A stretch of 64,000 bases of DNA, from positions 156,335 to 220,334 of the forward strand of contig NZ_CP071321.1 in NCBI RefSeq assembly GCF_017309585.1, given 5' to 3'. Both the position numbers and the translations under genes were made by a program. Positions 9,390 through 36,040 of this stretch are shown here, piece after piece (the first letter of the stretch is position 1; each line of letters begins with the position of its first letter). The notes beneath the pieces are model-generated. The model was not told the origin of the DNA and did not search any database. It saw only the letters and a list, made by a program, of their open reading frames with translations. The stretch is from Nitrogeniibacter aestuarii (GTDB lineage: Bacteria; Pseudomonadota; Gammaproteobacteria; Burkholderiales; Rhodocyclaceae).

Positions 9390-9602
9390 GGGTGTCTCCC
9401 AATCTCTGGTCTGTGGCCGCTATTGGGTGCGACCTGAAACGTACAGCATGCCACCGTTTTCATGACGGCTCCACCCTGTGCGAAGCAGGGGGATCTGGCG
9501 CCTCTTGCGAGATCATTGAAATGGCATGATTTGCGGCTGTCTGTTTGCCAATGGCATAGTCTCGCGTACCATACAACCCCTCGTGTTTGTCCTGACCTTG
9601 CC

Positions 9603-12560
9603 ATGTTTTCCGAGTTTTCCACCGCCACGCGGCTGTACGATCTGAGCTGGCGCGACAGCGGCCCTGAGTTGCTGGTCGAAGCCTGGTGGGGCCATGAGGC
9701 CCTGTCGCAGGGGTTCGAGCTGTGCATCGACGCGCTGTCGACCGACGCACACCTGGCGCTCAAGGACTTTCTGGGCAAGGCGGTGAGCCTGCGCTGCGCC
9801 CTGCCCGACGGCAGCGCCAGCACCCGCAGCGGTCTCGTGCGCGCCGCCTTCAAGCTGGGCAGCGACGGCGGCTTCACCCGCCACCGGCTGGTGGTGGTGC
9901 CCTGGAGCTGGCTGCTCACGCAAACGCGCAACAACCGCGTCTTCCAGGACAAGAGCGTGGTCCAGATCGTCGAACAGGTATTCGCCACCCACCAGCAGTT
10001 CGCTGCCTGGCAGTGGAGCGATGAAGTGGCAGGCTTTCTGGAGCGCGTGCGTCCCCGCAGCTACTGCGTGCAATACGGCGAAACCGACTACGCCTTCATT
10101 TCCCGCCTGCTGGCCGAAGAGGGCATCGGCTGGTGCATGGAAGAAGACGACAGCGCCCCGGCCGGCCACCGCATGCGCCTGTTCGCCGACAGCGGCGCCT
10201 TCCCCGAAGACGTCCAGTCCCAGGTGGGCGGCATCCGCTTTCACCGCGCCGACTCGCAGGAAGAGAGCGACGCCATCGTCGCGCTCGGCGCCCACCGCAA
10301 GCTCGGCCTGTCGGTGGGCACCACGCTCAGCTACGACTACAAGCACAAGAAGATCGTCGCCACCAGCCTGCCCAGCGTGCAGCGCCCCGGCGGCCCCAAC
10401 GCCCCGGTGCTCGAAGACTTCGACGACGCCGGGCTCTACGCCTACGCCGACCGGGCCGAAGCCGAGCACTACGCCGGGCTCATGCTCGAAGCGCGCGAAG
10501 CACGCTTCAAGACCTTCATCGGCCGCGGCACCGTGCGCAGCTTCCGCCCCGGGCTGGCCTTCAGCCTGAGCGAATCGACGCTCGACGCCCTGGTCGACTC
10601 ACCCGACGACGCCACCGACGAGAACGCCACCCGCTTCGGCCTGCGCTCGGTGCTGCATGTGGGCATCAACAACCTCACCGGCGAAGCCATGGCCAGCATC
10701 GCCAAGCGCCTGTCCGGCGCACTGCACACCGACCCCGGCGCCTGGGAAGAGGCCGAGACACCCCGCGCCGACATCGCCCACGCCCCCGCCCAACTGCCCG
10801 ATCGCATCCTCGAACTGGCCTGCGAGCGCGGCTACGGCAACCAGTTCGACACCCAACGCCTCAGCGTGCCCTGGCGCCCCGTACTGGCCGACGGCACCGG
10901 CGAGCGCCTCAACCCGCGCCCCACCGCCCCCGGCCCCATGACCGCCATCGTCGTCGGCCCGCAGGGCGAAGCCAGCCCCAATGGTGCCGACGAGCTCTAC
11001 TGCGACAAATACGGACGCATCAAGGTGCGCTTCCACTGGCAGCAAGGCCTCGAAGCGGACGACAACCGCAGCTGCTGGCTGCGCGTGGCCAGCCGCCAGG
11101 CCGGCGAAGGCATGGGCTGGCAGTTTCTCCCGCGTATCGGGCAGGAAGTGCTCGTGGGCTTCCTGGGGCAGGACATCGACCGCCCCATCGTCATCGGCGC
11201 GCTCTACAACGGTCGGGGCGAGGGTGGCGTCGCCCCCACCCCGGGCGGCGAGACCGGCAGCGAATCGGACACCAGCGTCTTCACCCAGGCCACCGACCAC
11301 AGCCCCTCCGCCCAGGGCAACCTCAGCGCCGGCAACAGCCCCGCCTGGCACGGCGGCGCCTCCACGGGCCACGGCCACGCCGCTGCCCTGACCGGCTTCA
11401 AGACCAAGGAGTTTGGTGCCAACGGCAGCTACGCCGGCTACAACCAGCTCGTCTTCGACGACACTGACAGCCAGCAGCGCGTGCAGCTCAAGAGCACCGA
11501 ATCGACCAGCGAACTCAACCTCGGCCACCTCATCCACCAGGCCGACAACTACCGCGGCTCCTTCCGTGGCACCGGCGTCGAACTCAGAACCGATGCCTGG
11601 GGCGCCCTGCGCGCCGGCAACGGCTTGCTCATGAGCACCTGGGCCAAAGGCAGTGACCGAGAACCGGCCGGCGACAACAGCGCCGGCATGGCCCTGCTCA
11701 AGCAAGCCACCACCCTAGGCGAAACCCTCTCGGGCGCCGCCAAGACCCACCAGACCGTGCAACTGGCCAGCGCCCTGGGCTCCCAGGCCGCCAACCAGAG
11801 CGCCATCGACCCCGACGCCGCCCCCCTCAAGGCCCTGCACACCGTCGCCAGTGGCATGGTCGCCCGGGACAGCACCGGCGCCGCGAACAGCGACGCGGGC
11901 GCCAAGAACACCGCCGTGGGCGATGGCAAAGTCCCGCATCTCACCGATGCCGCCATCGTCCAGGCCGCCAAAGCCGGCCTGGCCATGGTTGCCGGGCAAC
12001 ACCTGCAATGGACCGTGGGCGAGACCGCCACCCTCATGAGCGGCCAGGACACCAACTTCGCCATCGCCGGCAAGACCCGTATCCACACCGGCCAGGCCAT
12101 CGGCCTGCTCGCCGGCGCCATTCAGCCCGGCGAGCAGAACACCGGCATCAAGCTCATTGCCGCACAAGGCGACATCGATGCCCAGGCCCAGAGCGACGAG
12201 ATGAAGTTCCAGAGCAAGAAGGACCTCAAACTCGTCTCGGCCAGCGCCAACATCGACTTTGCGGCGGCCAAGAAGATCGTCATGTCAGTCGGGGGCGGGG
12301 CGAGCATCACCATCGACGGGGGCATCACCGTGCAGTGCCCGGGGACGATTACGGTGCATGCGAGCAAGAAGAGTTTTAGTGGGCCGACGAGCGAGAGTTA
12401 CGCGTTGCCCGTCATGCCCACTGAGAACAGCGACTGGGTCAAGGTTGACGCGGTATACGACGACGCCTGGAACACCCGTTGGCCCTTGGACGACATGAAG
12501 CTCGATCTTGGCGGACAGCCGCTGGCCACCCACTTCAACCTCCCCAAGACCAAGGAGTAA
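9603..12560 (+). CDS. vgrG: Type VI secretion system spike protein VgrG
   Basis: 985 aa. gp27/gp5-like N-terminal modules (FELCIDALSTDAHLALKDFLGKAV, YCVQYGETDYAFISRLLAEEGIGW). G-rich beta-helical repeat region. ATG at 9603 is inside the longer tracked ORF and has an upstream purine-rich region. Confidence 0.9.
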   Translation: MFSEFSTATRLYDLSWRDSGPELLVEAWWGHEALSQGFELCIDALSTDAHLALKDFLGKAVSLRCALPDGSASTRSGLVRAAFKLGSDGGFTRHRLVVVPWSWLLTQTRNNRVFQDKSVVQIVEQVFATHQQFAAWQWSDEVAGFLERVRPRSYCVQYGETDYAFISRLLAEEGIGWCMEEDDSAPAGHRMRLFADSGAFPEDVQSQVGGIRFHRADSQEESDAIVALGAHRKLGLSVGTTLSYDYKHKKIVATSLPSVQRPGGPNAPVLEDFDDAGLYAYADRAEAEHYAGLMLEAREARFKTFIGRGTVRSFRPGLAFSLSESTLDALVDSPDDATDENATRFGLRSVLHVGINNLTGEAMASIAKRLSGALHTDPGAWEEAETPRADIAHAPAQLPDRILELACERGYGNQFDTQRLSVPWRPVLADGTGERLNPRPTAPGPMTAIVVGPQGEASPNGADELYCDKYGRIKVRFHWQQGLEADDNRSCWLRVASRQAGEGMGWQFLPRIGQEVLVGFLGQDIDRPIVIGALYNGRGEGGVAPTPGGETGSESDTSVFTQATDHSPSAQGNLSAGNSPAWHGGASTGHGHAAALTGFKTKEFGANGSYAGYNQLVFDDTDSQQRVQLKSTESTSELNLGHLIHQADNYRGSFRGTGVELRTDAWGALRAGNGLLMSTWAKGSDREPAGDNSAGMALLKQATTLGETLSGAAKTHQTVQLASALGSQAANQSAIDPDAAPLKALHTVASGMVARDSTGAANSDAGAKNTAVGDGKVPHLTDAAIVQAAKAGLAMVAGQHLQWTVGETATLMSGQDTNFAIAGKTRIHTGQAIGLLAGAIQPGEQNTGIKLIAAQGDIDAQAQSDEMKFQSKKDLKLVSASANIDFAAAKKIVMSVGGGASITIDGGITVQCPGTITVHASKKSFSGPTSESYALPVMPTENSDWVKVDAVYDDAWNTRWPLDDMKLDLGGQPLATHFNLPKTKE

Positions 12561-12566
12561 GGCCAG

Positions 12567-13769
12567 ATGGCTTCGGAAGACGAGGGCGCGAAGAAGTTGC
12601 TCACCCCACAGGGCGGCTCCGTCGCCGTGATGGCAAATCCGAGAAATGTCAGTGAGAAGGAGATTCACGACGACAGATTGCTGATCATTCAACGCCTTGA
12701 CGGTTGCTATGGCAATCTCGTTGAGCACATGGCACCAATGCAGGCGGCCTGGGATGCCAACCCCATGGTCGCGTTGGGCGAAGCGGCCATCGACGGTGCC
12801 AGCGCTGGTGTTGGTGACTGGGCCGACGACTTTGCCGACATGTTCGACAAGAAGACGTGGGTCGCGTTGGGGGACAAGTTGGAGCATGCGGCAGGCGCCG
12901 TCTACGACACCACCCGCGAGTATGCGGCGGATGTCTACCAGCGCATCGACGCGCTCTTCGAGAACGCCGACGATACCCTCGCCAACTGGGCATGGTGGCA
13001 AAGCCAGATCGAATCGGCCGAGCAGGCCGTCGTTGACGATCTCCAGCGAAAGTACGAAGCGATGAGGGAAACGGTTGATGACATCGAGGAGGTCATTGCC
13101 ATCGCCCAGCGGGTGTGGGCCTATCGGGACGACATTCTCAACCTCCCTAAGCTGATTGCAGAAGGTGACGCCAAAGCGGTGCAAGCCTTTGTCGACAACA
13201 CACTACCGAAGATCGACAAGGAACTGGCCGATGGCATTCGCAACGACCCGAATTTCTACGTCGTGCTGGAGATCATTCAGGACAATGACAGCGCGCTGGC
13301 CTATCTGAGTTACGTCAGCCTGGCCATCGAAGCCGTGCCGCCCAACTTCTACGCCTACCACGCCGGCAAGGGCGGCGCCTACCTGATGATTGAAGTGGTG
13401 CTGCTGATCGTCACCGCACTGCTATCGGCCGGCACCGTCGCCGCAGCACGCATCGCCGCACTCGGCGCGCGAATTGCCGCCAGCAGCGCCAAGGTCGCCG
13501 GCGTTGCCCGCAAGGTCGAAGCGGCGCAACGCGCCTTCGCCGCCTTTGTCCGCATGCTCGACGACTTCTCGGCCGCCGCCAACCAGCTCCACGCCCTGGG
13601 CGCCAAGCTCAACGTGGCGCGCCAGCGCGGCCTGCGTGTTGCGGGCAGCACAAAAACCACCATCACCGCCCGCCGCGCCGCCATCAAGCGCGACCGCCGC
13701 TGCCGCATCTGCGGCAGCAGCAAACACAGCACACCGCACGGGCGGCTGGGCACGGTCGAGTACGAATAA
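12567..13769 (+). CDS. VgrG-linked hypothetical protein; probable carrier/N-terminal part of a T6SS effector
   Basis: Starts 6 nt after the vgrG stop with RBS CAAGGAG. Hydrophobic/Ala-rich segment near residues 265-330. In the same reading frame as the downstream AHH gene, separated only by TAA at 13767-13769. Confidence 0.5.
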   Translation: MASEDEGAKKLLTPQGGSVAVMANPRNVSEKEIHDDRLLIIQRLDGCYGNLVEHMAPMQAAWDANPMVALGEAAIDGASAGVGDWADDFADMFDKKTWVALGDKLEHAAGAVYDTTREYAADVYQRIDALFENADDTLANWAWWQSQIESAEQAVVDDLQRKYEAMRETVDDIEEVIAIAQRVWAYRDDILNLPKLIAEGDAKAVQAFVDNTLPKIDKELADGIRNDPNFYVVLEIIQDNDSALAYLSYVSLAIEAVPPNFYAYHAGKGGAYLMIEVVLLIVTALLSAGTVAAARIAALGARIAASSAKVAGVARKVEAAQRAFAAFVRMLDDFSAAANQLHALGAKLNVARQRGLRVAGSTKTTITARRAAIKRDRRCRICGSSKHSTPHGRLGTVEYE

Positions 13770-13784
13770 GGAGAAGAAGGCACA

Positions 13785-14462
13785 ATGCTCGGCAACGTAC
13801 TGAAGGACGCCAAGTACCTCAAACGCATCAAGGACGCCACGGACCTGCTCTCCGACCCCGGCCACCCGCGCCACCACGGAATCAAGATGCAGGCGCATCA
13901 TGTGATTTCGGCGGAGGGGGTGAAGAAGTCTGGTCTTGGGAACGATCTCGTTCGATTTGGCTATGACATCAACCTGTTGGACAATCTGGTCTTCATTCCC
14001 TCGACGCTACAGGGCGCGTGCCACTTGGGCGTGCAGCCGCACCGGGGAGATCACAGGGCGCCGGTCGAGGGGGATGAGTTTGATGATGATCGGAAGCGAC
14101 CGGATGACTACCATAGAACGATCGCCAAGCGAGTCAATGAGTTGAAGCGCCTGCTTACCGACAATTGCCCGGCCGAGGATCCGGACCGGCGGCGGACGAT
14201 TCACCAGAAGATGGATGAGATCAGCAAGAAAATTGCGAAACTCATCCGAATCGTCCCGAGTAAAGCTCCTCTGACGAGAGTTGCGAAGCACTTCGGCCCG
14301 ACATCAAAGATCGGCTGCGGCGGGGTCGATTCGATTCCTCGCCACGAAGACCATCCCTGCCCGGTGGAGCGACATCACCACGGTCAGCAAGGCCCCGGCC
14401 AGAAGGACGAGCAAATCACATACCGGAAAGATAAGCCGTATCAGTTGAAGGTGGGACGATGA
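13785..14462 (+). CDS. AHH-family HNH/EndoVII-fold nuclease toxin domain protein
   Basis: A-H-H motif in MQAHHVISAEGVKKSG. Followed by DINLLDNLVFIPST and a His-rich segment (GACHLGVQPHRGDH), as expected for AHH nucleases of polymorphic toxin systems. Stop overlaps the first immunity-like gene (ATGA). Confidence 0.72.
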   Translation: MLGNVLKDAKYLKRIKDATDLLSDPGHPRHHGIKMQAHHVISAEGVKKSGLGNDLVRFGYDINLLDNLVFIPSTLQGACHLGVQPHRGDHRAPVEGDEFDDDRKRPDDYHRTIAKRVNELKRLLTDNCPAEDPDRRRTIHQKMDEISKKIAKLIRIVPSKAPLTRVAKHFGPTSKIGCGGVDSIPRHEDHPCPVERHHHGQQGPGQKDEQITYRKDKPYQLKVGR

Positions 14463-15085
14463 GCGCAGGCAGGTTTGACAATGACTACTATTTTGTCCAC
14501 GAAGTCCCTCACGATGAGCGTCTTCCATACCTGACACCCGATGAAGACACGTCGCGCAAACCCTATACGTCCAAGCGACTCCCGATGCATACCAAACCGT
14601 TGATTTTCCACAACGGCTCCTTGGATTATCAAAAGGCGAACCGCATCACTCCGTACGATCCGCCCCCGGAAATCCTCTTCAGTGGCTCCGACGTTGTCGT
14701 CAAGGACAAGCTGCGCGACAAACTCCTGCCGCTGGAAATTCCCAACCTCGCCATCCAGCCGGCGATCTACATCGACCACAAAAACAACTGGCACGAGGAC
14801 TACTGGTATCTGACATTCACCGAGTTGTTCGATTGCTGGGATCGAGAGAGGTCTTACTACGACCCCGATCCGGTCGATTTCGACGATGTGAAGCTCTACG
14901 AGGTGTACACCTACTCGCTCGACGAAAAGGTGTTGGAAGAAACGCCGCTCGAATCTCGGCGCCTGTTCAAGATGGGTAGCACCACGGAAGGTCCGGTTGT
15001 CGTCCACGTCTCCATTGCAAGCTGGTTCGGACTTAGCGGCGCAGTGCTTGTGCCCATCGCCGAGTATGGGGTGTCATTTCCCTGA
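14459..15085 (+). CDS. putative immunity protein, tandem paralog 1 of 3 (207 aa)
   Basis: Immediately downstream of, and ATGA-coupled to, the AHH toxin gene. Shares the conserved core LPLEIPNLAIQPAIYIDHKNNWHEDYWYLTFTELFDCWDRER with paralogs 2 and 3. No secretion signal. Confidence 0.6.
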   Translation: MSAGRFDNDYYFVHEVPHDERLPYLTPDEDTSRKPYTSKRLPMHTKPLIFHNGSLDYQKANRITPYDPPPEILFSGSDVVVKDKLRDKLLPLEIPNLAIQPAIYIDHKNNWHEDYWYLTFTELFDCWDRERSYYDPDPVDFDDVKLYEVYTYSLDEKVLEETPLESRRLFKMGSTTEGPVVVHVSIASWFGLSGAVLVPIAEYGVSFP

Positions 15086-15112
15086 AGCGAGAGCGGTGTT
15101 GAAGGTCGGACG

Positions 15113-15736
15113 ATGAGCACAGGAAAATTCGATAGCGACTACTACTTTGTTAGAAAAGCGCAAGACGAGCGTTTGCCGTCGTTGACACCCGACGAAGATA
15201 CATCTCGCAAGCCTTATACGTCGGAGCGGCTTCCGATGCATACCAAGCCATTGATCTTCTTCAACGGTGCGTCGGATTTTCAGAAGAGCAATCACATACG
15301 GCCAAGTGACCCGGCTCCAGACATCCTTTTCAGCGGTTCGGATGTCCTCGTCAAAGACGAAGTACGCGATAAACTTCTGCCGCTGGAAATCCCCAACCTC
15401 GCCATCCAGCCTGCCATCTACATCGACCACAAGAACAACTGGCATGAGGACTACTGGTATCTGACGTTCACCGAGTTGTTCGATTGCTGGGATCGTGAGC
15501 GATCGTCATATCGGCCCAAGCCCATCGATTTCGATGGAGTGAAGATCTACAACGTACGTCAATATTCCCTGAACGATGACCTGCTTGACGAAACCCCACT
15601 CGAGTCCAGACGGCTGTTCAAGATGGGTGGCACGCTGGATGGCTTCGTCGTCGTCCATGTCTCCATTGCGAGCTGGTTCGGACTCAGCGGCGCAGTGCTT
15701 GTGCCCATCGCCGAGTACGGGGTGTCATTTCCTTGA
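15113..15736 (+). CDS. putative immunity protein, tandem paralog 2 of 3 (207 aa)
   Basis: Divergent N-terminal ~60 aa and residues ~135-170. Conserved core and C-terminus. Preceded by a 27-nt spacer whose last 17 nt mimic the 3' end of the AHH gene. Confidence 0.6.
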   Translation: MSTGKFDSDYYFVRKAQDERLPSLTPDEDTSRKPYTSERLPMHTKPLIFFNGASDFQKSNHIRPSDPAPDILFSGSDVLVKDEVRDKLLPLEIPNLAIQPAIYIDHKNNWHEDYWYLTFTELFDCWDRERSSYRPKPIDFDGVKIYNVRQYSLNDDLLDETPLESRRLFKMGGTLDGFVVVHVSIASWFGLSGAVLVPIAEYGVSFP

Positions 15737-15763
15737 AGCGAGAGCGGTGCTGAAGGTCGGACG

Positions 15764-16387
15764 ATGAGCACAGGAAAATTCGACGGCGAATACTATTTCG
15801 TGCTGAAGGACAGGGCAGAGGGAATGCCAGAAATGACGCCGGATGAGGACACCGCAAGGAAGGGCTATCGGTTCACTCGGCTTCCGCTGCACACGAAGCC
15901 TCTGATATTTCACAACGGCTCATTGGAGCATCAACGAGCAAATCGAATTAGGCCCATCGACCCGCCTCCCGAAATTCTATTCGATGGCTCCGACGTCCTC
16001 GTCAAAGACGAAGTACGCGACAAACTCCTGCCGCTTGAAATCCCAAACCTCGCCATCCAGCCTGCCATCTACATCGACCACAAGAACAACTGGCATGAGG
16101 ACTACTGGTATCTGACATTCACCGAGTTGTTCGATTGCTGGGATCGAGAGAGGTCTTACTACGACCCCGATCCGGTCGATTTCGACGATGTGAAGCTCTA
16201 CGAGGTGTACACCTACTCGCTCGACGAAAAGGAGTTGGAAGAAACCCCGCTCGAATCTCGGCGCCTGTTCAAGATGGGTAGCACCACGGAAGGTCCGGTT
16301 GTCGTCCACGTCTCCATCGCGAGCTGGTTCGGGCGCAGCGGCGCAGTGCTGGTGCCCATCGTCGAGTACGGGGTGTCATTTCCCTAA
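15764..16387 (+). CDS. putative immunity protein, tandem paralog 3 of 3 (207 aa)
   Basis: C-terminal 150 aa nearly identical to paralog 1. N-terminus distinct. Same junction sequence as paralog 2. Confidence 0.6.
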   Translation: MSTGKFDGEYYFVLKDRAEGMPEMTPDEDTARKGYRFTRLPLHTKPLIFHNGSLEHQRANRIRPIDPPPEILFDGSDVLVKDEVRDKLLPLEIPNLAIQPAIYIDHKNNWHEDYWYLTFTELFDCWDRERSYYDPDPVDFDDVKLYEVYTYSLDEKELEETPLESRRLFKMGSTTEGPVVVHVSIASWFGRSGAVLVPIVEYGVSFP

Positions 16388-17284
16388 GACCGTCTTGGCC
16401 TCCGATTTGGTGCTTCCCTTGGATACAAATTTTCAAGGCTGGATGGAAATTGCTTGGGCCCGAAGACATCCCTGCTCGAAGCCTGCGACGAGTACGTCAC
16501 CTTGCTCAACCTGCGCAACTGGGAAAAGCTTTGCGAGCGCTACGTGACCGAACAGATCTACGTGCACTCAAAGCTGATGGTTGTGGATGACCGGATCGCG
16601 CTCATTGGCAGTGCCAACATCGATGACCGCAGCTTGCTGGGCGAACGCGATTCGGAACTGGCGGTACTGGTGATTGACGACACCCATGAGAAGGCCGACA
16701 TCGGCCTGGGCCGGCAGACGCCGGTGCGCAAGTTTGCGCGGGAACTGCGCATGGACATCTGGAAGAAGCTGTTCGGAATCACCGGCAATGTGCGCCCGGC
16801 CACGCATCTGCAGGCGGCCATCGAACAGCCGGTCAAGCCAGCCAGTTGGAAGGCGATTCAGAAGCAGGCGCGGGAGAATGCCGAGGCGTATGAGAAGGCG
16901 TTTGAGTTTGTTCCGAGGAATTGGGTAGATGAGGTCGAAGGCAGGGTTCCTGCCAAGATCTTGCCCACTTGGGATTCAAGCTCCGACGTGCCTGAGGGAA
17001 TAGCGGCCAATTGGGGAAAGAAAGGCTATCTGAAATCGCCATTACCGTTCCAGTCGGAATTCTGGGGTAAGCCACGTTACAACCCGACCGCCGTGGCCGG
17101 CCTCAACGACATCAAAGGATTCATTACCGCCCTGCCCGTTCACTGGACCGAAGGCGAGAATATCAAGTTTGTGTTCCCGACATCGCTAGTGGTGCAGAAC
17201 GATCGTACACCGGCCGGTACGCCGCTAAAGACCGCTTGGGACGCAACGCAAGAAGACCAAGCTATAACGGACGAACACGTATGA
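16388..17284 (+). pseudogene. Orphan C-terminal fragment of a phospholipase D-family (Tle5-like) T6SS effector; no start codon
   Basis: Frame opens immediately after the TAA of immunity paralog 3, with no ATG/GTG and no RBS. Contains one PLD HKD motif (HSKLMVVDDRIALIGSANIDDRS = HxKx4Dx6GSxN). The first HKD repeat is missing. ATGA overlap with the downstream lipoprotein gene. Confidence 0.65.
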
Positions 17285-18375
17285 GCTACCGGAATATTGC
17301 GATGGCCCTCGGGCTTTGTCTGCCGCTGGGCGCTTGCGCCGACAAGCCTGCAAACCAGACATGGCCAATCGAATGCGTAGGGCGCATGCAGATTTCGTTG
17401 CCGGGCGAGGCCGATCAGGCAGCCTTACCAAGTTCGGCATTCATTGAACAGTTTGCCGCAACTCAGACAAAGCGTATCCGGCACACGTACTCAGATGGGT
17501 CGTACGCTTCGCGGGTCAATTTATATTTTCGCGCCGGCGTGGAAGTCAGTCAAAAACTCAGCAATCAGGAAGTCGCGAATCTGAAGGGGGCCATCAAGGA
17601 GCGAAATATCCGGGTACAGCAGCATGCGAAAGACCAAGGCGGACAAGTGACATATTTGAATACTGGTCCGCTTGAAGGCTCAGTGCTGGTGCGAAGCGAT
17701 GTGTTTTACATCTCTTCCACATTGATATTTGGCCAACATGCGCTGACATGGAAACTTCGCACGGACGAAAAACGCTTTGACGAAGTGAAGGCTTTGGCTA
17801 ACGGTTTGAGCACGAACCTTCGTCCCCGCCCCCTTTTCGACACCCCCCACGAACCTGGCGTCTGCCTGCCCTATGCCTTCATCCGCGACGACGGCACCAC
17901 CCCGCACAGCATCGCCATGAGCTACCGGCTCAATGATCACCCGGACATCGTCATCAATCTGGAGAGCAGTAGCGCAAGCCCCACACCGAAAAAGGGCGAC
18001 CATGCCCGCCCGGATACCGTCACAGACGAGACGCGCACGAGTGATTTCTGGAACCAGCAGATGACATGGCTGCACACGTTCAAAACCCACTGGAAGCGCC
18101 CATTCTCCATGCGCAGTGTGGACATCGCCGGTCGTAAAGGCACGGCATCGTTCGTGGAAGTGGTGCGCGAAAAAGGCGGTCCCACCGACCACATCTATCT
18201 CGTGGTCGCGCGCGGCAATCCGGACGCCCCCGAGGCTGAGCCGGACATCCGCTTGTTCGTCGAGCAGACGCAGGAGAACGCCACCAAGCGCGGCATTACG
18301 CCGCTGACGCAGGACGAGGTGCAAGCGCTGGCCGAGCAGATCACTGCGAGCGTGTCGATCAGGCCCACTCTCTGA
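17281..18375 (+). CDS. lipoprotein, putative periplasmic immunity protein (Tli-like) for the PLD effector
   Basis: Signal peptide plus lipobox (MALGLCLPLGAC). Translationally coupled to the PLD fragment. Matches the usual tle-tli arrangement. Confidence 0.55.
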   Translation: MSYRNIAMALGLCLPLGACADKPANQTWPIECVGRMQISLPGEADQAALPSSAFIEQFAATQTKRIRHTYSDGSYASRVNLYFRAGVEVSQKLSNQEVANLKGAIKERNIRVQQHAKDQGGQVTYLNTGPLEGSVLVRSDVFYISSTLIFGQHALTWKLRTDEKRFDEVKALANGLSTNLRPRPLFDTPHEPGVCLPYAFIRDDGTTPHSIAMSYRLNDHPDIVINLESSSASPTPKKGDHARPDTVTDETRTSDFWNQQMTWLHTFKTHWKRPFSMRSVDIAGRKGTASFVEVVREKGGPTDHIYLVVARGNPDAPEAEPDIRLFVEQTQENATKRGITPLTQDEVQALAEQITASVSIRPTL

Positions 18376-33321: not shown

Positions 33322-34553
33322 AGATCGAACAACAACACGATCACGACATCCTGCACGCGGGACAGGGCGCGCCCATCAAGCTGTGGACCCACGGCGTGCC
33401 GGTCGAAGACGATGCCCGCCAGCAACTCATCAACACCGCGCAGATGCCCTTCATCTACAAGCATCTGGCCGTGATGCCGGATGTGCATCTGGGCAAGGGC
33501 TCGACCATCGGCAGCGTGATCCCCACCCGTGGCGCCATCATCCCGGCGGCCGTCGGTGTGGATATCGGCTGCGGCATGATGGCCGCCCGCACCACGCTCA
33601 CCGCGGCCGACCTGCCGGACAACCTGCACGGCCTGCGCACCGCCATCGAAAAGGCCGTGCCGCACGGGCGCAACATGACCCGAGGCAAGCGCGACCAGGG
33701 GAGCTGGGGTCGCCCGCCCGAGCTGGTGGATGCTTACTGGAAGGCGCTGCTGCCGGGCTTCAACCGCATTACCGAAAAGGCGCCGCGTTTGAAGAACACC
33801 AACAACCATAACCATTTGGGGACGCTCGGTACGGGCAACCACTTCATCGAAGTGTGCCTGGATGAGGCCGAGCGCGTGTGGATCATGCTGCATTCGGGTT
33901 CGCGCGGTGTGGGCAACGCCATCGGCCGCCACTACATCGAACTGGCCCAGGCCGACATGCGCCAGCACATCGCCAATCTGCCGGACCGCGACCTCGCCTA
34001 CTTCGAAGAAGGCTCGCAGCACTTCGACGACTATGTCGAGGCCGTGGGCTGGGCGCAGGACTACGCCCGCAAGAACCGCGAAGTGATGATGCAGCACGTG
34101 ATCGCCGCCACCCGTACCGTGATCGAAAAGCCCTTCCAGGCGGATGTGGAGGCGGTGAACTGCCACCACAACTACGTGCAGCGCGAAACCCACTTCGGGC
34201 ACAAGGTGCTGGTGACGCGAAAAGGCGCTGTGTCCGCCCAGAAAGGCCAGCTCGGCATCATCCCCGGCTCCATGGGCGCACGCAGCTACATCGTGCGCGG
34301 CAAGGGCAACCCGGAGAGCTTCTGCTCATGCAGCCACGGAGCAGGACGCACCATGAGCCGCAACGCCGCCAAGAAGCGTTTCTCGATCGAAGACCAGATT
34401 CGCGCGACCGAAGGCGTGGAATGCCGCAAGGATGCATCGGTGATTGACGAAATCCCGATGGCGTATAAGGATATCGACGCCGTCATGGCCGCGCAGGACG
34501 CGCTGGTGGAGGTGGTGCACACCTTGAAGCAGGTGGTGTGTGTGAAGGGGTGA
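33318..34553 (+). CDS. rtcB: RNA-splicing ligase RtcB (3'-phosphate/5'-hydroxyl RNA ligase)
   Basis: 411 aa. HLGKGSTIGSVIPT, GVDIGCGM, HNHLGTLGTGNHFIE, MLHSGSRGVGNAIG, NCHHNY and AHGAGR motifs of RtcB. Confidence 0.9.
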   Translation: MKIEQQHDHDILHAGQGAPIKLWTHGVPVEDDARQQLINTAQMPFIYKHLAVMPDVHLGKGSTIGSVIPTRGAIIPAAVGVDIGCGMMAARTTLTAADLPDNLHGLRTAIEKAVPHGRNMTRGKRDQGSWGRPPELVDAYWKALLPGFNRITEKAPRLKNTNNHNHLGTLGTGNHFIEVCLDEAERVWIMLHSGSRGVGNAIGRHYIELAQADMRQHIANLPDRDLAYFEEGSQHFDDYVEAVGWAQDYARKNREVMMQHVIAATRTVIEKPFQADVEAVNCHHNYVQRETHFGHKVLVTRKGAVSAQKGQLGIIPGSMGARSYIVRGKGNPESFCSCSHGAGRTMSRNAAKKRFSIEDQIRATEGVECRKDASVIDEIPMAYKDIDAVMAAQDALVEVVHTLKQVVCVKG

Positions 34554-34583
34554 TAGCTAAAATAAATTTGCTCTGGGGCTAGT

Positions 34584-35948
34584 ATGGATAATCTGAATTA
34601 TTCCGAATCTGATTTTGGTGAAAGGTTAAACAAAGTACTTTCAGCGTCAAAGCCGATAAACAGCATTGAATTTTTAAAAGGTAGAGATAGAGAGCTAGAA
34701 ACCATAAAACGCGCTCTATACGCTGACGGGAGGCACGTTTTTATCTTCGGAGATCGAGGTGTCGGGAAGAGTTCACTGGGCCAAACTGCTGCGATCGCAT
34801 ACCAAAGTTCGGATGCAGAACCAATCTTCGTTTCGGGGTCACCTGACGATTCATTCTCATCCATAGTGGCCAACATAGTGGCGCGAGCGATTAGCAAGCC
34901 GCGTACGAAAAGCGTAAAAAATTCGAAAAAAATTTCGCTTTCTTTTAGAGGTCTTTCGATTGGTGAAGGGGAAGATGTCAGCCCAATCGATATCGAATCT
35001 AACATCCAAACAATTGGTGATGCTGTTGAACTGCTCAGGCAGGCTGGAAAAGAGCACTCAGCTAAGCCTATCATTGTAATTGACGAGTTTGATACGATTT
35101 CCAGTCTCGATGAGAGAAACAAGTTCTCATATCTTCTCAAGCAGTTGGGAGATCAAGCAGTAAACATCAAATTCATTTTTACTGGAATTGCTCGGTCTCT
35201 AGATGAATTATTAGGAGTGCATCAATCGGCGTATCGGCAACTCGAGACAGTTGAACTGCCTCGCCTTGGCTGGGACGCTCGCCGCGAAATCGTAACTTCA
35301 ACTGCGGCTGCATTCAATATCACTGTGGATAACGATGTAAATTGGCGCATATGTATGGTGAGCGATGGGTATCCATACTACATACATCTTGTGTTGGAAA
35401 AGATTTTATGGGCAGCTTACATTCTAGAGCCTGATATCTCGGAGATTGGATGGGATTTGTTTCATGAAGGTTTGCACGAAGCCATTTTGGCAACAAGTGC
35501 AGAGTTGAAGCGGCCTTACGAAAAAGCGGTATTGCACAGAGAAGAATCATACGAAGATGTTGTATGGGCAACCGCTGATCATGACGATTTAATGAGGTCG
35601 TTGAATGATATGTATGAATCGTACAGATTGGTTGTAGAAAAAAGGAATGATGCGCGCGAAGTTTTAGACCGGGGGAGATTTTCCGCGCTGGTGCGTAAGC
35701 TCAAAGACGCAAGCTACGGTTCTGTACTTACAAGTGTTGAGTCGCGTAAAGGCTGGTATTCCTACAGAGAAAAAATGCTACGCGGATTCGTTCGAATGCA
35801 AGCGCACGTTAACGGTGTCGAGTTGACTGGTGATCGACCAACGCCGAGACAGACGCAGCACGTTGGGAACGCGCGAAAGGGTTACAAAGGCGCAGCTTTG
35901 CCGCGCGGTGTTCGCCAGCGTTCAAAAATCGGAAGTTGGGACGATTGA
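34584..35948 (+). CDS. P-loop NTPase of the AAA_16/Arch_ATPase (ORC/Cdc6-like) type, encoded on a low-GC island
   Basis: Walker A (FIFGDRGVGKSSL) preceded by LKGRDRELETIKRAL. Walker B (PIIVIDEFD). 454 aa. Codon and GC content sharply lower than the flanks (AT-rich from 34555 to ~36540). Confidence 0.8.
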   Translation: MDNLNYSESDFGERLNKVLSASKPINSIEFLKGRDRELETIKRALYADGRHVFIFGDRGVGKSSLGQTAAIAYQSSDAEPIFVSGSPDDSFSSIVANIVARAISKPRTKSVKNSKKISLSFRGLSIGEGEDVSPIDIESNIQTIGDAVELLRQAGKEHSAKPIIVIDEFDTISSLDERNKFSYLLKQLGDQAVNIKFIFTGIARSLDELLGVHQSAYRQLETVELPRLGWDARREIVTSTAAAFNITVDNDVNWRICMVSDGYPYYIHLVLEKILWAAYILEPDISEIGWDLFHEGLHEAILATSAELKRPYEKAVLHREESYEDVVWATADHDDLMRSLNDMYESYRLVVEKRNDAREVLDRGRFSALVRKLKDASYGSVLTSVESRKGWYSYREKMLRGFVRMQAHVNGVELTGDRPTPRQTQHVGNARKGYKGAALPRGVRQRSKIGSWDD

Positions 35949-35964
35949 AAGCGGTGTTGCGAAA

Positions 35965-36040
35965 CAGGGGGCAGACCTCGGTATTTAACTTAATTAGCCA
36001 GGTTCGAATGTTGAGCGCCTAAAACCGAGCTCTGCCCCCT
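35965..36040. repeat. Long-stem hairpin downstream of the ATPase gene (possible terminator or element boundary)
   Basis: CAGGGGGCAGACCTCGGT ... ACCGAGCTCTGCCCCCT forms a ~16-bp stem around a 41-nt AT-rich loop that contains GGTTCGAAT. Followed by TATTTCGG. Confidence 0.35.

Follow-up and report, generated by a model that had tools for sequence, protein, structure and literature searches.

The question raised by this locus is how a single predicted nuclease toxin gene of Nitrogeniibacter aestuarii came to be followed by three tandem paralogs of an apparent immunity gene, each of them starting inside what reads as the end of the toxin. The locus lies in a 64,000-nucleotide (nt) stretch of contig NZ_CP071321.1 (positions 156,335 to 220,334), called here the window, in which Pfam, NCBIfam and the list of open reading frames (ORFs) revealed one co-oriented gene string at 9.4-18.4 kb; all genes of this string lie on the + strand. 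The toxin gene (13785..14462) encodes a 225-amino acid (aa) AHH-family HNH/EndoVII nuclease toxin (PF14412, E 3e-11, 43.7 bits against a cut-off of 22.3), which has the motif QAHHVIS with further histidine residues downstream and ends in ...KPYQLKVGR-stop. Its stop codon overlaps the ATG of paralog 1 (14459..15085), which is followed by paralog 2 (15113..15736) and paralog 3 (15764..16387), all three ORFs being intact, with spacers of 27 nt and start-to-start distances of 654 and 651 nt. The first-pass annotation had described three tandem paralogs of 207 aa, which is indeed the length of copies 2 and 3, while copy 1 has 208 aa. It is probable, in our judgement, that the locus is a VgrG-linked type VI secretion system (T6SS) module with an Imm11 polyimmunity array, which arose by module displacement, unequal crossover or both, with gene conversion in addition.

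The first line of evidence lies in the junctions of the array. Each ATG is preceded by (T/C)TGAAGGT(G/C)GGACGATGA, which in the toxin frame reads L-K-V-G-R-stop; its TGA shares bases with the start codon. At the true end of the toxin gene, TTGAAGGTGGGACGATGA (14445..14462) contains the Shine-Dalgarno sequence of copy 1, and its counterparts in spacer 1, TTGAAGGTCGGACGATGA (15099..15116), and in spacer 2, CTGAAGGTCGGACGATGA (15750..15767), encode the same LKVGR-stop and hold the Shine-Dalgarno sequences of copies 2 and 3; in each case AAGG stands 7 nt upstream of the ATG, within the 18-nt relic. There are exactly three occurrences of the junction 19-mer TGAAGGTSGGACGATGAGC in the 64 kb (at 14446, 15100 and 15751), as compared to 0.04 expected, and no shuffled sequence gave three. 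That every unit carries the last five codons of the toxin, identical to the AHH end, had been proposed before, and it holds for all amino acids at the three junctions but not for every nucleotide, since 16-17 of 18 nt match: both spacer relics differ from the true toxin end by the synonymous change GTG>GTC, and the third junction also by TTG>CTG. The two spacers are identical to each other at 26 of 27 nt. Upstream of the 18 nt, toxin similarity in the window was not convincing, as the MAFFT alignment pairs AAGCGAGAGCGGT----GTTGAAGG with AAGATAAGCCGTATCAGTTGAAGG and the frame is lost. A scan for promoters and terminators within the array gave none above shuffled expectation.

Relatives were collected by scanning metagenome contigs with the family alignment, which gave 60 loci on which the family hidden Markov model (HMM) and a jackhmmer toxin profile were then run, and by scanning genome contigs with a single protein query, which gave one locus, in Denitromonas. 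Across loci the toxins end in ...KP(F)Y-K/Q-L-x-x-G-K/R-stop, with the stop overlapping the immunity ATG or lying 2-5 nt before it, and the purine-rich codons for G-K/R (such as GGG AAA or GGA CGA) provide the immunity gene with its Shine-Dalgarno sequence, for example at 14439-14462 of the window. The same bases are thereby predicted to serve as toxin C-terminus and as ribosome-binding site (RBS) of the immunity gene in AHH toxins of this subfamily. Because the 18-nt relic contains the Shine-Dalgarno sequence, its retention has an ordinary functional reason, and the relic of the window appears to be a minimal version, roughly the part that bears the RBS.

A position-specific scoring matrix (PSSM) was built from the last eight residues of the toxins of other loci and scored on the stop-terminated peptide just upstream of each immunity copy. 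Both window spacers gave p 6e-4 (score 8.7 for spacer 1), and relics with p <= 6e-4 were found upstream of non-first or orphan copies in L002 (NITYTKPKLKAYKLRAGK-stop and TKPEQNAYKLRRGN-stop), L003 (IKMKKTNYTLKPGA-stop), L005/6/16 (MFPKSRKPYQLTMEK-stop), L008, L009 (FYKLTMGK-stop), L017, L022/23 (FPKSRTPYKLTMGR-stop), L030 and L036. In L033/L034 an AHH fragment covering profile positions 133-182 lies between copies. The earlier idea of a toxin 3' relic is borne out by these results, as a matching toxin C-terminal motif, often far longer than that of the window, precedes non-first or orphan copies at many independent loci. Relic length ranges from 5 codons in the window to 18 or more in other loci and about 96 in the metagenomic locus L067, so that the breakpoints do not fall at one specific site. 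The same range of lengths led us to reject a fixed recombination site, similar to the attC of integrons, at the end of the toxin gene.

The relic lengths also bear on whether the shared 18 nt are a relic at all. They could instead be an RBS and translational-coupling signal that is convergent or kept by selection, as suggested by the AAGG placed 7 nt before each ATG and by the purine-rich G-K/R-stop codons of the toxins in all loci. This reading is disfavoured, and we consider it very improbable: the identity of 16-17 of 18 nt includes positions outside the Shine-Dalgarno sequence, the toxin peptide is kept elsewhere over 8-18 codons or more (about 96 in L067), far past any such sequence, and the motif scan of the 64-kb window found no unrelated genes that share the 18-mer.

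The second line of evidence is the mosaic structure of the three copies, which was counted per 30 nt and per block. At the protein level, copies 2 and 3 are 81 and 85% identical to copy 1, respectively, and the differences are unevenly placed. In the N block (nt 31-240) all three copies differ, with 60-70% nt identity between pairs, while the core (nt 241-390) and the C-terminal block (nt 541-624) show 89-95 and 89-94% nt identity among copies. In the middle block (nt 391-540) copies 1 and 3 are 98.7% identical (2 differences) and copy 2 is about 65% identical to both. The tract of recent conversion or exchange extends over 180 nt with 2 differences, at 14822..15001 in copy 1 and 16124-16303 in copy 3. 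A maximum chi-square comparison of copies 1 and 3 gave a chi2 of 91 at nt 252, a value reached in 0 of 1000 permutations, and the counts of third-position differences agree with this breakpoint and with the block divergence. The first-pass annotation had seen an almost identical C-terminal 150 aa in copies 1 and 3 behind different N-termini; the N-termini do differ, and the near-identity is confined to about 120 aa (3 differences in the last 120 aa, 10 in the last 150). Its description of copy 2 as divergent in the N-terminal part and in a middle block was confirmed, with 20 differences from copy 1 in the first 80 aa and 18 in aa 132-179. Origin of copy 2 as a simple hybrid of copies 1 and 3 by unequal crossover is ruled out by its unique alleles in both variable blocks.

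Nei-Gojobori estimates showed that no common age can be assigned to these blocks. In the N block the proportion of synonymous differences (pS) is saturated at 0.77-0.90, with a nonsynonymous divergence (dN) of 0.16-0.29; in the core, synonymous divergence (dS) is 0.34-0.76 and dN at most 0.017; and in the C-terminal block (nt 541-621) dS is about 0.3 and dN at most 0.034. In the middle block, copies 1 and 3 have a dS of 0.03 and a dN of 0.009, as compared to a dS of 1.4-1.6 and a dN/dS of 0.16-0.22 between either of them and copy 2. In the exchange tract of copies 1 and 3 dS is 0.03, whereas the core beside it has 0.46 and the N block is saturated; within one and the same gene pair, synonymous divergence varies more than 50-fold between blocks.

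These estimates are the main ground on which to weigh an in-situ tandem duplication, in which a 651-bp unit (immunity gene, 17-18 nt of toxin end and 13 nt of downstream flank) was doubled twice and then changed under diversifying selection, with no foreign alleles involved. Such an origin is suggested by the exact 651-nt period, the 26 of 27 identical spacer positions, the 90% identity of the first 30 nt of copies 2 and 3, the TGAAG microhomology at both ends of the unit, and the single-copy states of Denitromonas and L067, which could be ancestral. Against it stand the three disparate synonymous levels (N block pS 0.77-0.90, core dS 0.3-0.8, copy 1/3 middle block dS 0.03), so that no single duplication date fits, and the dN far below the saturated pS in the N block together with a dN/dS of 0.16-0.22 in the middle block, which means that positive selection was not the driver of divergence. 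In addition, proteins of other organisms resemble the variable blocks of the copies as much as, or more than, the copies resemble one another there. We regard this duplication model as unlikely, though not negligible.

The nearest neighbours of each copy indeed shift from block to block. In the middle block, copy 2 shares 0.78 identity with the foreign protein P0002 and 0.64 with copies 1 and 3, and in the N block copy 3 is 0.83 identical to the single Denitromonas copy, its nearest relative. For the core and the C-terminal block, the nearest relative of each copy is another copy of the array (0.93-1.0), and over the whole gene identity is highest among the three copies themselves. The expectation, under effector displacement, that orphan copies are nearest to the toxin-immunity pairs of other strains is hence borne out in the two variable blocks and fails in the other two. 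Where the copies differ from one another, the family as a whole is variable too (entropy 2.29 vs. 1.29, p 3e-11); the C-terminal block, despite its variability across the family, is nearly fixed among the three copies, which points to homogenisation within the array. Between the Denitromonas copy and copy 1, the middle block shows 98% identity (dS 0.09), whereas the two loci share 84.5% nt identity in the toxin (dS 0.56) and 80% in the carrier ORF upstream of it (dS 0.87), which points to a recent exchange of the middle block. The block mosaic thus reflects recombination and not selection alone, as the earlier proposal of a recombinational mosaic had held: synonymous divergence, shifting neighbours and the maximum chi-square comparison all agree with it. 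Both variable patches (aa ~11-80 and ~131-180) may be specificity surfaces in contact with the toxin, as they coincide with variable positions of the family.

Regarding copy 2, its public annotation apparently starts from an internal methionine and gives a 166-aa product (P0013), which equals copy 2 in every block compared; the full 207-aa ORF with its Shine-Dalgarno sequence is the better gene model.

The identity of the paralogs was addressed by profile and structure comparison. The database search gave 156 relatives of about 200 aa, some with precomputed PF07791 (Imm11) matches, and the named relatives are mostly betaproteobacteria (Iodobacter, Chromobacterium, Jeongeupia, Azoarcus and Rugamonas). 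The comparison with Imm families that the first-pass annotation had suggested showed that PF07791 is matched by 31 of 42 aligned family members at E <= 0.01 (best 2.3e-7), while the window copies stay below the Pfam cut-off of 22.1 bits, with 18.5 bits for copy 1, 19.1 for copy 2 and no Pfam match of its own for copy 3, which the family HMM recognises at E 8e-99. The subfamily therefore straddles the edge of the Pfam model. Compared to sequences of the Protein Data Bank (PDB), the family profile reached MXAN_0049 (6A4C) at E 0.08 (0.082). The AlphaFold2 model of copy 1 was of high quality (predicted local distance difference test, pLDDT, 96.3; predicted template modelling score, pTM, 0.90), and a Foldseek search of the PDB with it returned 6A4C at E 1.8e-9 and probability 1.00 (TM 0.61/0.59 over 206 columns), the next match having E > 1, so that the model of copy 1 has the fold of the founding Imm11 member, to which the paralogs are about 15% identical. 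The entry 6A4C is a solution structure and represents MXAN_0049, which gives immunity against the T6SS-delivered nuclease MXAN_0050 (PMC6627406), and passages of a later commentary class this pair as AHH/Imm11 (PMC12077181). The paralogs are therefore best described as a putative divergent Imm11 subfamily, in which fold and context agree with Imm11 and the curated sequence threshold is borderline.

In context, too, the paralogs agree with Imm11, whose genes lie directly 3' of toxins of the AHH/HNH/SHH type; here, the toxin stop overlaps the immunity start. The earlier proposal that they are immunity proteins of the adjacent AHH nuclease is supported as a prediction by the PF14412 domain upstream behind VgrG, the 31 of 42 Imm11 matches, the sole fold match to 6A4C and an AHH homolog at 29 of 46 loci. 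The paralogs might be accessory, chaperone or co-secreted effector factors and not immunity proteins, for which the sub-threshold Pfam scores in the window could be taken to speak. That view is hardly credible to us, given that the only fold match is a proven immunity protein, that the genes stand directly 3' of the toxin with stop and start overlapping, that orphan arrays occur with no secretion genes at all (L002 and L005), and that Imm11 has been described together with Tox-AHH (Zhang et al., 2012, PMC3482391).

Among the 46 evaluable distinct loci, an AHH homolog ends directly at the first copy in 29, and the toxin is absent at 17, which are orphans such as L002 and L005 (the latter between prmA and an ABC transporter). 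Homologs away from toxin neighbourhoods had been named beforehand as a finding that would speak against an immunity function; they do occur, at these 17 loci, but several of them carry toxin relics and are therefore orphan immunity genes and not counter-examples. Two to four tandem copies were found in 19 locus records, some of them overlapping, which correspond to about 15 distinct loci. In L003 (6376-7900), the junctions contain a repeated palindrome similar to repetitive extragenic palindromic (REP) elements, CCCTCTCCCGCGAGCGGGAGAGGG, and, joined to a toxin relic of 14 codons, a duplicated N-terminal fragment (about 90 nt) of the third copy, which is itself degenerate and lacks profile positions ~123-149. 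Decay occurs in single copies as well, since those of L014, L043 and L047 are split across two frames in the family HMM search, a sign of frameshift or pseudogene formation.

The comparison of copy number proposed earlier gave one copy in Denitromonas iodatirespirans and in L067 and three in the window. The Denitromonas locus consists of a VgrG end, a 400-aa ORF, an AHH gene ending in YQLKVGR-stop, the ATGA overlap and a single immunity copy. L067 (ENA ERZ27257198 contig k141_1292675, 1-1821) matches window 14174-15083 at 98.4% identity; its toxin is reduced to the final 96 codons, with unrelated sequence before them, and its one copy-1-like immunity gene runs straight into the stretch found behind copy 3 in the window (16388-16637). 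The immunity gene itself changes from copy-1 to copy-3 character somewhere between nt 602 and 609, and the sequence diverges again within the HKD motif of the phospholipase D (PLD) gene (window ~16637). The L067 state would be explained either by a deletion between copies 1 and 3 or by a state before the expansion, and it suggests several recombination breakpoints in the island, or else an assembly chimera.

In accordance with these results, the locus would be a T6SS cargo module with a carrier, a separate AHH toxin and a homogeneous polyimmunity array of three Imm11 genes. Copy 1 would be the most likely cognate antidote, because it is coupled translationally to the toxin by the ATGA overlap, and copies 2 and 3 may represent extra, backup or orphan immunity, probably against related AHH toxins of neighbouring strains. 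As the immunity RBS and start codon appear to sit inside the conserved C-terminal codons of the toxin (Y-K/Q-L-x-x-G-K/R-stop), an immunity cassette that is moved or left behind must carry the toxin end for its expression. Toxin-immunity modules would have been placed in series by effector displacement, unequal crossover or both, in an order of events that we infer, and a contribution of unequal crossover or conversion within the array is suggested by the near-identical spacers and the exact 651-nt period. Since then, the conserved core and C-terminal segments may have allowed continual remodelling of the array by homologous recombination and gene conversion, with homogenisation of these segments within the genome, while two old allele-like blocks (aa ~11-80 and ~131-180) would have been left in varying combinations.

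Several points weigh against this interpretation. The identity of 26 of 27 spacer positions and the exact 651-nt period fit a duplication within the array, or unequal crossover, better than the independent capture of three foreign modules. The relic of the window is the shortest found (18 nt) and coincides with the Shine-Dalgarno sequence and its spacing, so that taken alone it is ambiguous between ancestry and constraint, and the arrays of L013, L041, L051, L058 and L068 had no detectable relic. L067 is a short metagenome assembly that could be chimeric. To these are added the Imm11 scores below the cut-off. Finally, toxin and immunity distances are correlated at r 0.88 overall (0.83, 0.79 and 0.81 for the two variable and the C-terminal blocks, and 0.62 for the core), which is confounded by shared phylogeny; the variable patches follow toxin divergence slightly better than the core, a comparison that is weakly informative for the same reason.

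A more far-reaching version of the recombination model is that the toxin-end/Shine-Dalgarno/ATGA junction and the invariant core and C-terminus form a built-in cassette system that reshuffles the two specificity patches (aa ~11-80 and ~131-180) independently of each other, each immunity cassette bringing its own signal for expression and the conserved segments being the sites of crossover. We put this forward as a speculation with a small chance of being right. If it were true, the array would generate new combinations of immunity specificity and not be a mere archive, and this would answer why AHH loci carry extra imm11 genes.

The remaining genes of the string complete the module. At its head, a complete vgrG gene (9462..12560) encodes a spike protein with the Pfam domains Phage_GPD, Phage_base_V, T6SS_Vgr and DUF2345 and a TIGR03361 match of 310 bits; effector and immunity genes stand directly 3' of it on the same strand, as in VgrG-linked T6SS cargo, and the order vgrG-carrier-AHH-immunity recurs in L001 and L003. 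The carrier, or N-terminal part of the effector ("X"), is a separate ORF of 400 aa (12567..13769). It has no Pfam match, and NCBIfam gives no family for carrier, toxin or paralogs. L022 has a 632-aa ORF with an AHH domain at its C-terminus, and the first ~420 aa of this ORF match the carrier with 36% identity over about 400 aa (E 7e-84); as carrier and AHH are fused there, the effector of the window is predicted to be a split version of a carrier-plus-toxin protein, broken at the junction of the two domains. The carrier is kept upstream of AHH in L001, and L003 has a 490-aa ORF at the equivalent position, its likeness being one of position alone. The carrier and AHH ORFs of the window (12567-13800) are in the same frame, parted by one TAA and a GGAGAAG Shine-Dalgarno sequence, and in Denitromonas they do not share a frame. 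Features of the carrier are a hydrophobic stretch at aa ~270-300 and a CxxC...H motif near its end.

Downstream of the array lie a 5'-truncated PLD effector remnant with a single HKD motif (16454..17284; PLDc and PLDc_2 matches) and a gene for a Tli4_C-domain protein (17236..18375; PF18426, E 4e-14), which overlaps the PLD ORF at its 3' end (segment 16388-18375). The PLD ORF aligns only to residues 217-467 of a 491-aa homolog, the homology beginning about 85 nt past the copy 3 stop, and it is likely truncated, with the qualification that many database homologs are short too. The Tli4_C protein is probably the orphan immunity protein of this truncated lipase effector, and from their sequences the two genes look like the 3' remnant of an older lipase effector with its orphan immunity gene, displaced by the AHH module. 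The G+C content drops from ~0.64-0.69 to 0.55-0.56 across 14-18 kb of the window. Elsewhere, positions 34001-36000 have a G+C content of 0.50 as compared to ~0.64 in the flanks and may be another horizontally acquired segment.

The locus can be set beside several known systems. Homogeneous polyimmunity loci are tandem paralogous immunity genes in the same orientation, with short spacers and strain-variable number, and Imm11 is explicitly named as forming prominent loci of this kind (Zhang, de Souza, Anantharaman, Iyer, Aravind 2012, PMC3482391). The window shows the same features, with tandem copies of one family in one orientation, 27-nt spacers and a copy number that varies among relatives. 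Such loci are defined as uninterrupted by toxin cassettes and often stand alone (PMC3482391), whereas the array of the window is attached to a toxin gene and, with no toxin ORF between the copies, has an 18-nt toxin remnant in each spacer; related arrays hold longer toxin fragments between copies.

In the T6SS of Vibrio cholerae, immunity genes pile up 3' of the current effector, the immunity gene of a displaced effector and sometimes the 3' end of that effector being kept, and frequent homologous recombination has given the orphan arrays a mosaic structure (Kirchberger et al., 2017, PMC5361080). Effector remnants of this kind are present here as the 18-nt relics, as the truncated PLD with Tli4_C, which fits the displacement model directly, and as the longer AHH relics of other loci. 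The V. cholerae arrays are mostly heterogeneous, with different immunity families, whereas the copies of the window belong to one family with internal block exchange. Already known as well are the orphan modules of Rhs and contact-dependent inhibition (CDI) systems, in which the full-length toxin is followed by a series of 3' toxin fragments, each with its immunity gene behind it. As a rule, the toxic C-terminal domain of Rhs and CdiA orphans is still complete, and these orphans can become active again, whereas the relics of the window hold 5 codons only and their toxins are therefore beyond resurrection.

Another close parallel is the T6SS kin-discrimination pair MXAN_0050/MXAN_0049 of Myxococcus xanthus, which shares with the window the toxin family PF14412, the immunity fold, an immunity gene 3' of the toxin and T6SS delivery, the latter being predicted here from the genes. 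That pair is PAAR-linked, whereas the operon of the window is VgrG-linked with a 400-aa carrier and encodes a betaproteobacterial subfamily of ~15% identity. Some AHH loci of M. xanthus bear one or two extra imm11 genes, with cross-protection between homologs down to 46% identity, as told in the passages on these loci in PMC12077131 and PMC12077181; those passages describe neither toxin 3' relics nor block mosaicism, both of which mark the extra copies of the window. AHH-Imm11 pairs are major kin-discrimination determinants, and a passage of the 2025 commentary asks why some AHH loci bear extra imm11 genes (PMC12077181). The window and its relatives give sequence-level evidence on the origin of such genes in the form of relics, block genealogy and copy-number polymorphism: because the extra copies have toxin remnants, vary in number and exchange blocks, their behaviour is that of orphan or backup immunity genes which descend from toxin-immunity modules. 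Imm11 polyimmunity (PMC3482391), extra imm11 genes with cross-immunity (in the passages of PMC12077131 and PMC12077181) and arrays with effector remnants (PMC5361080) are already known, and what is added here is a betaproteobacterial Imm11 subfamily missed by the Pfam threshold and the dual coding of toxin C-terminus and immunity RBS. Current concepts are left unchanged, and the value of the locus beside these systems is that of a clean, testable example.

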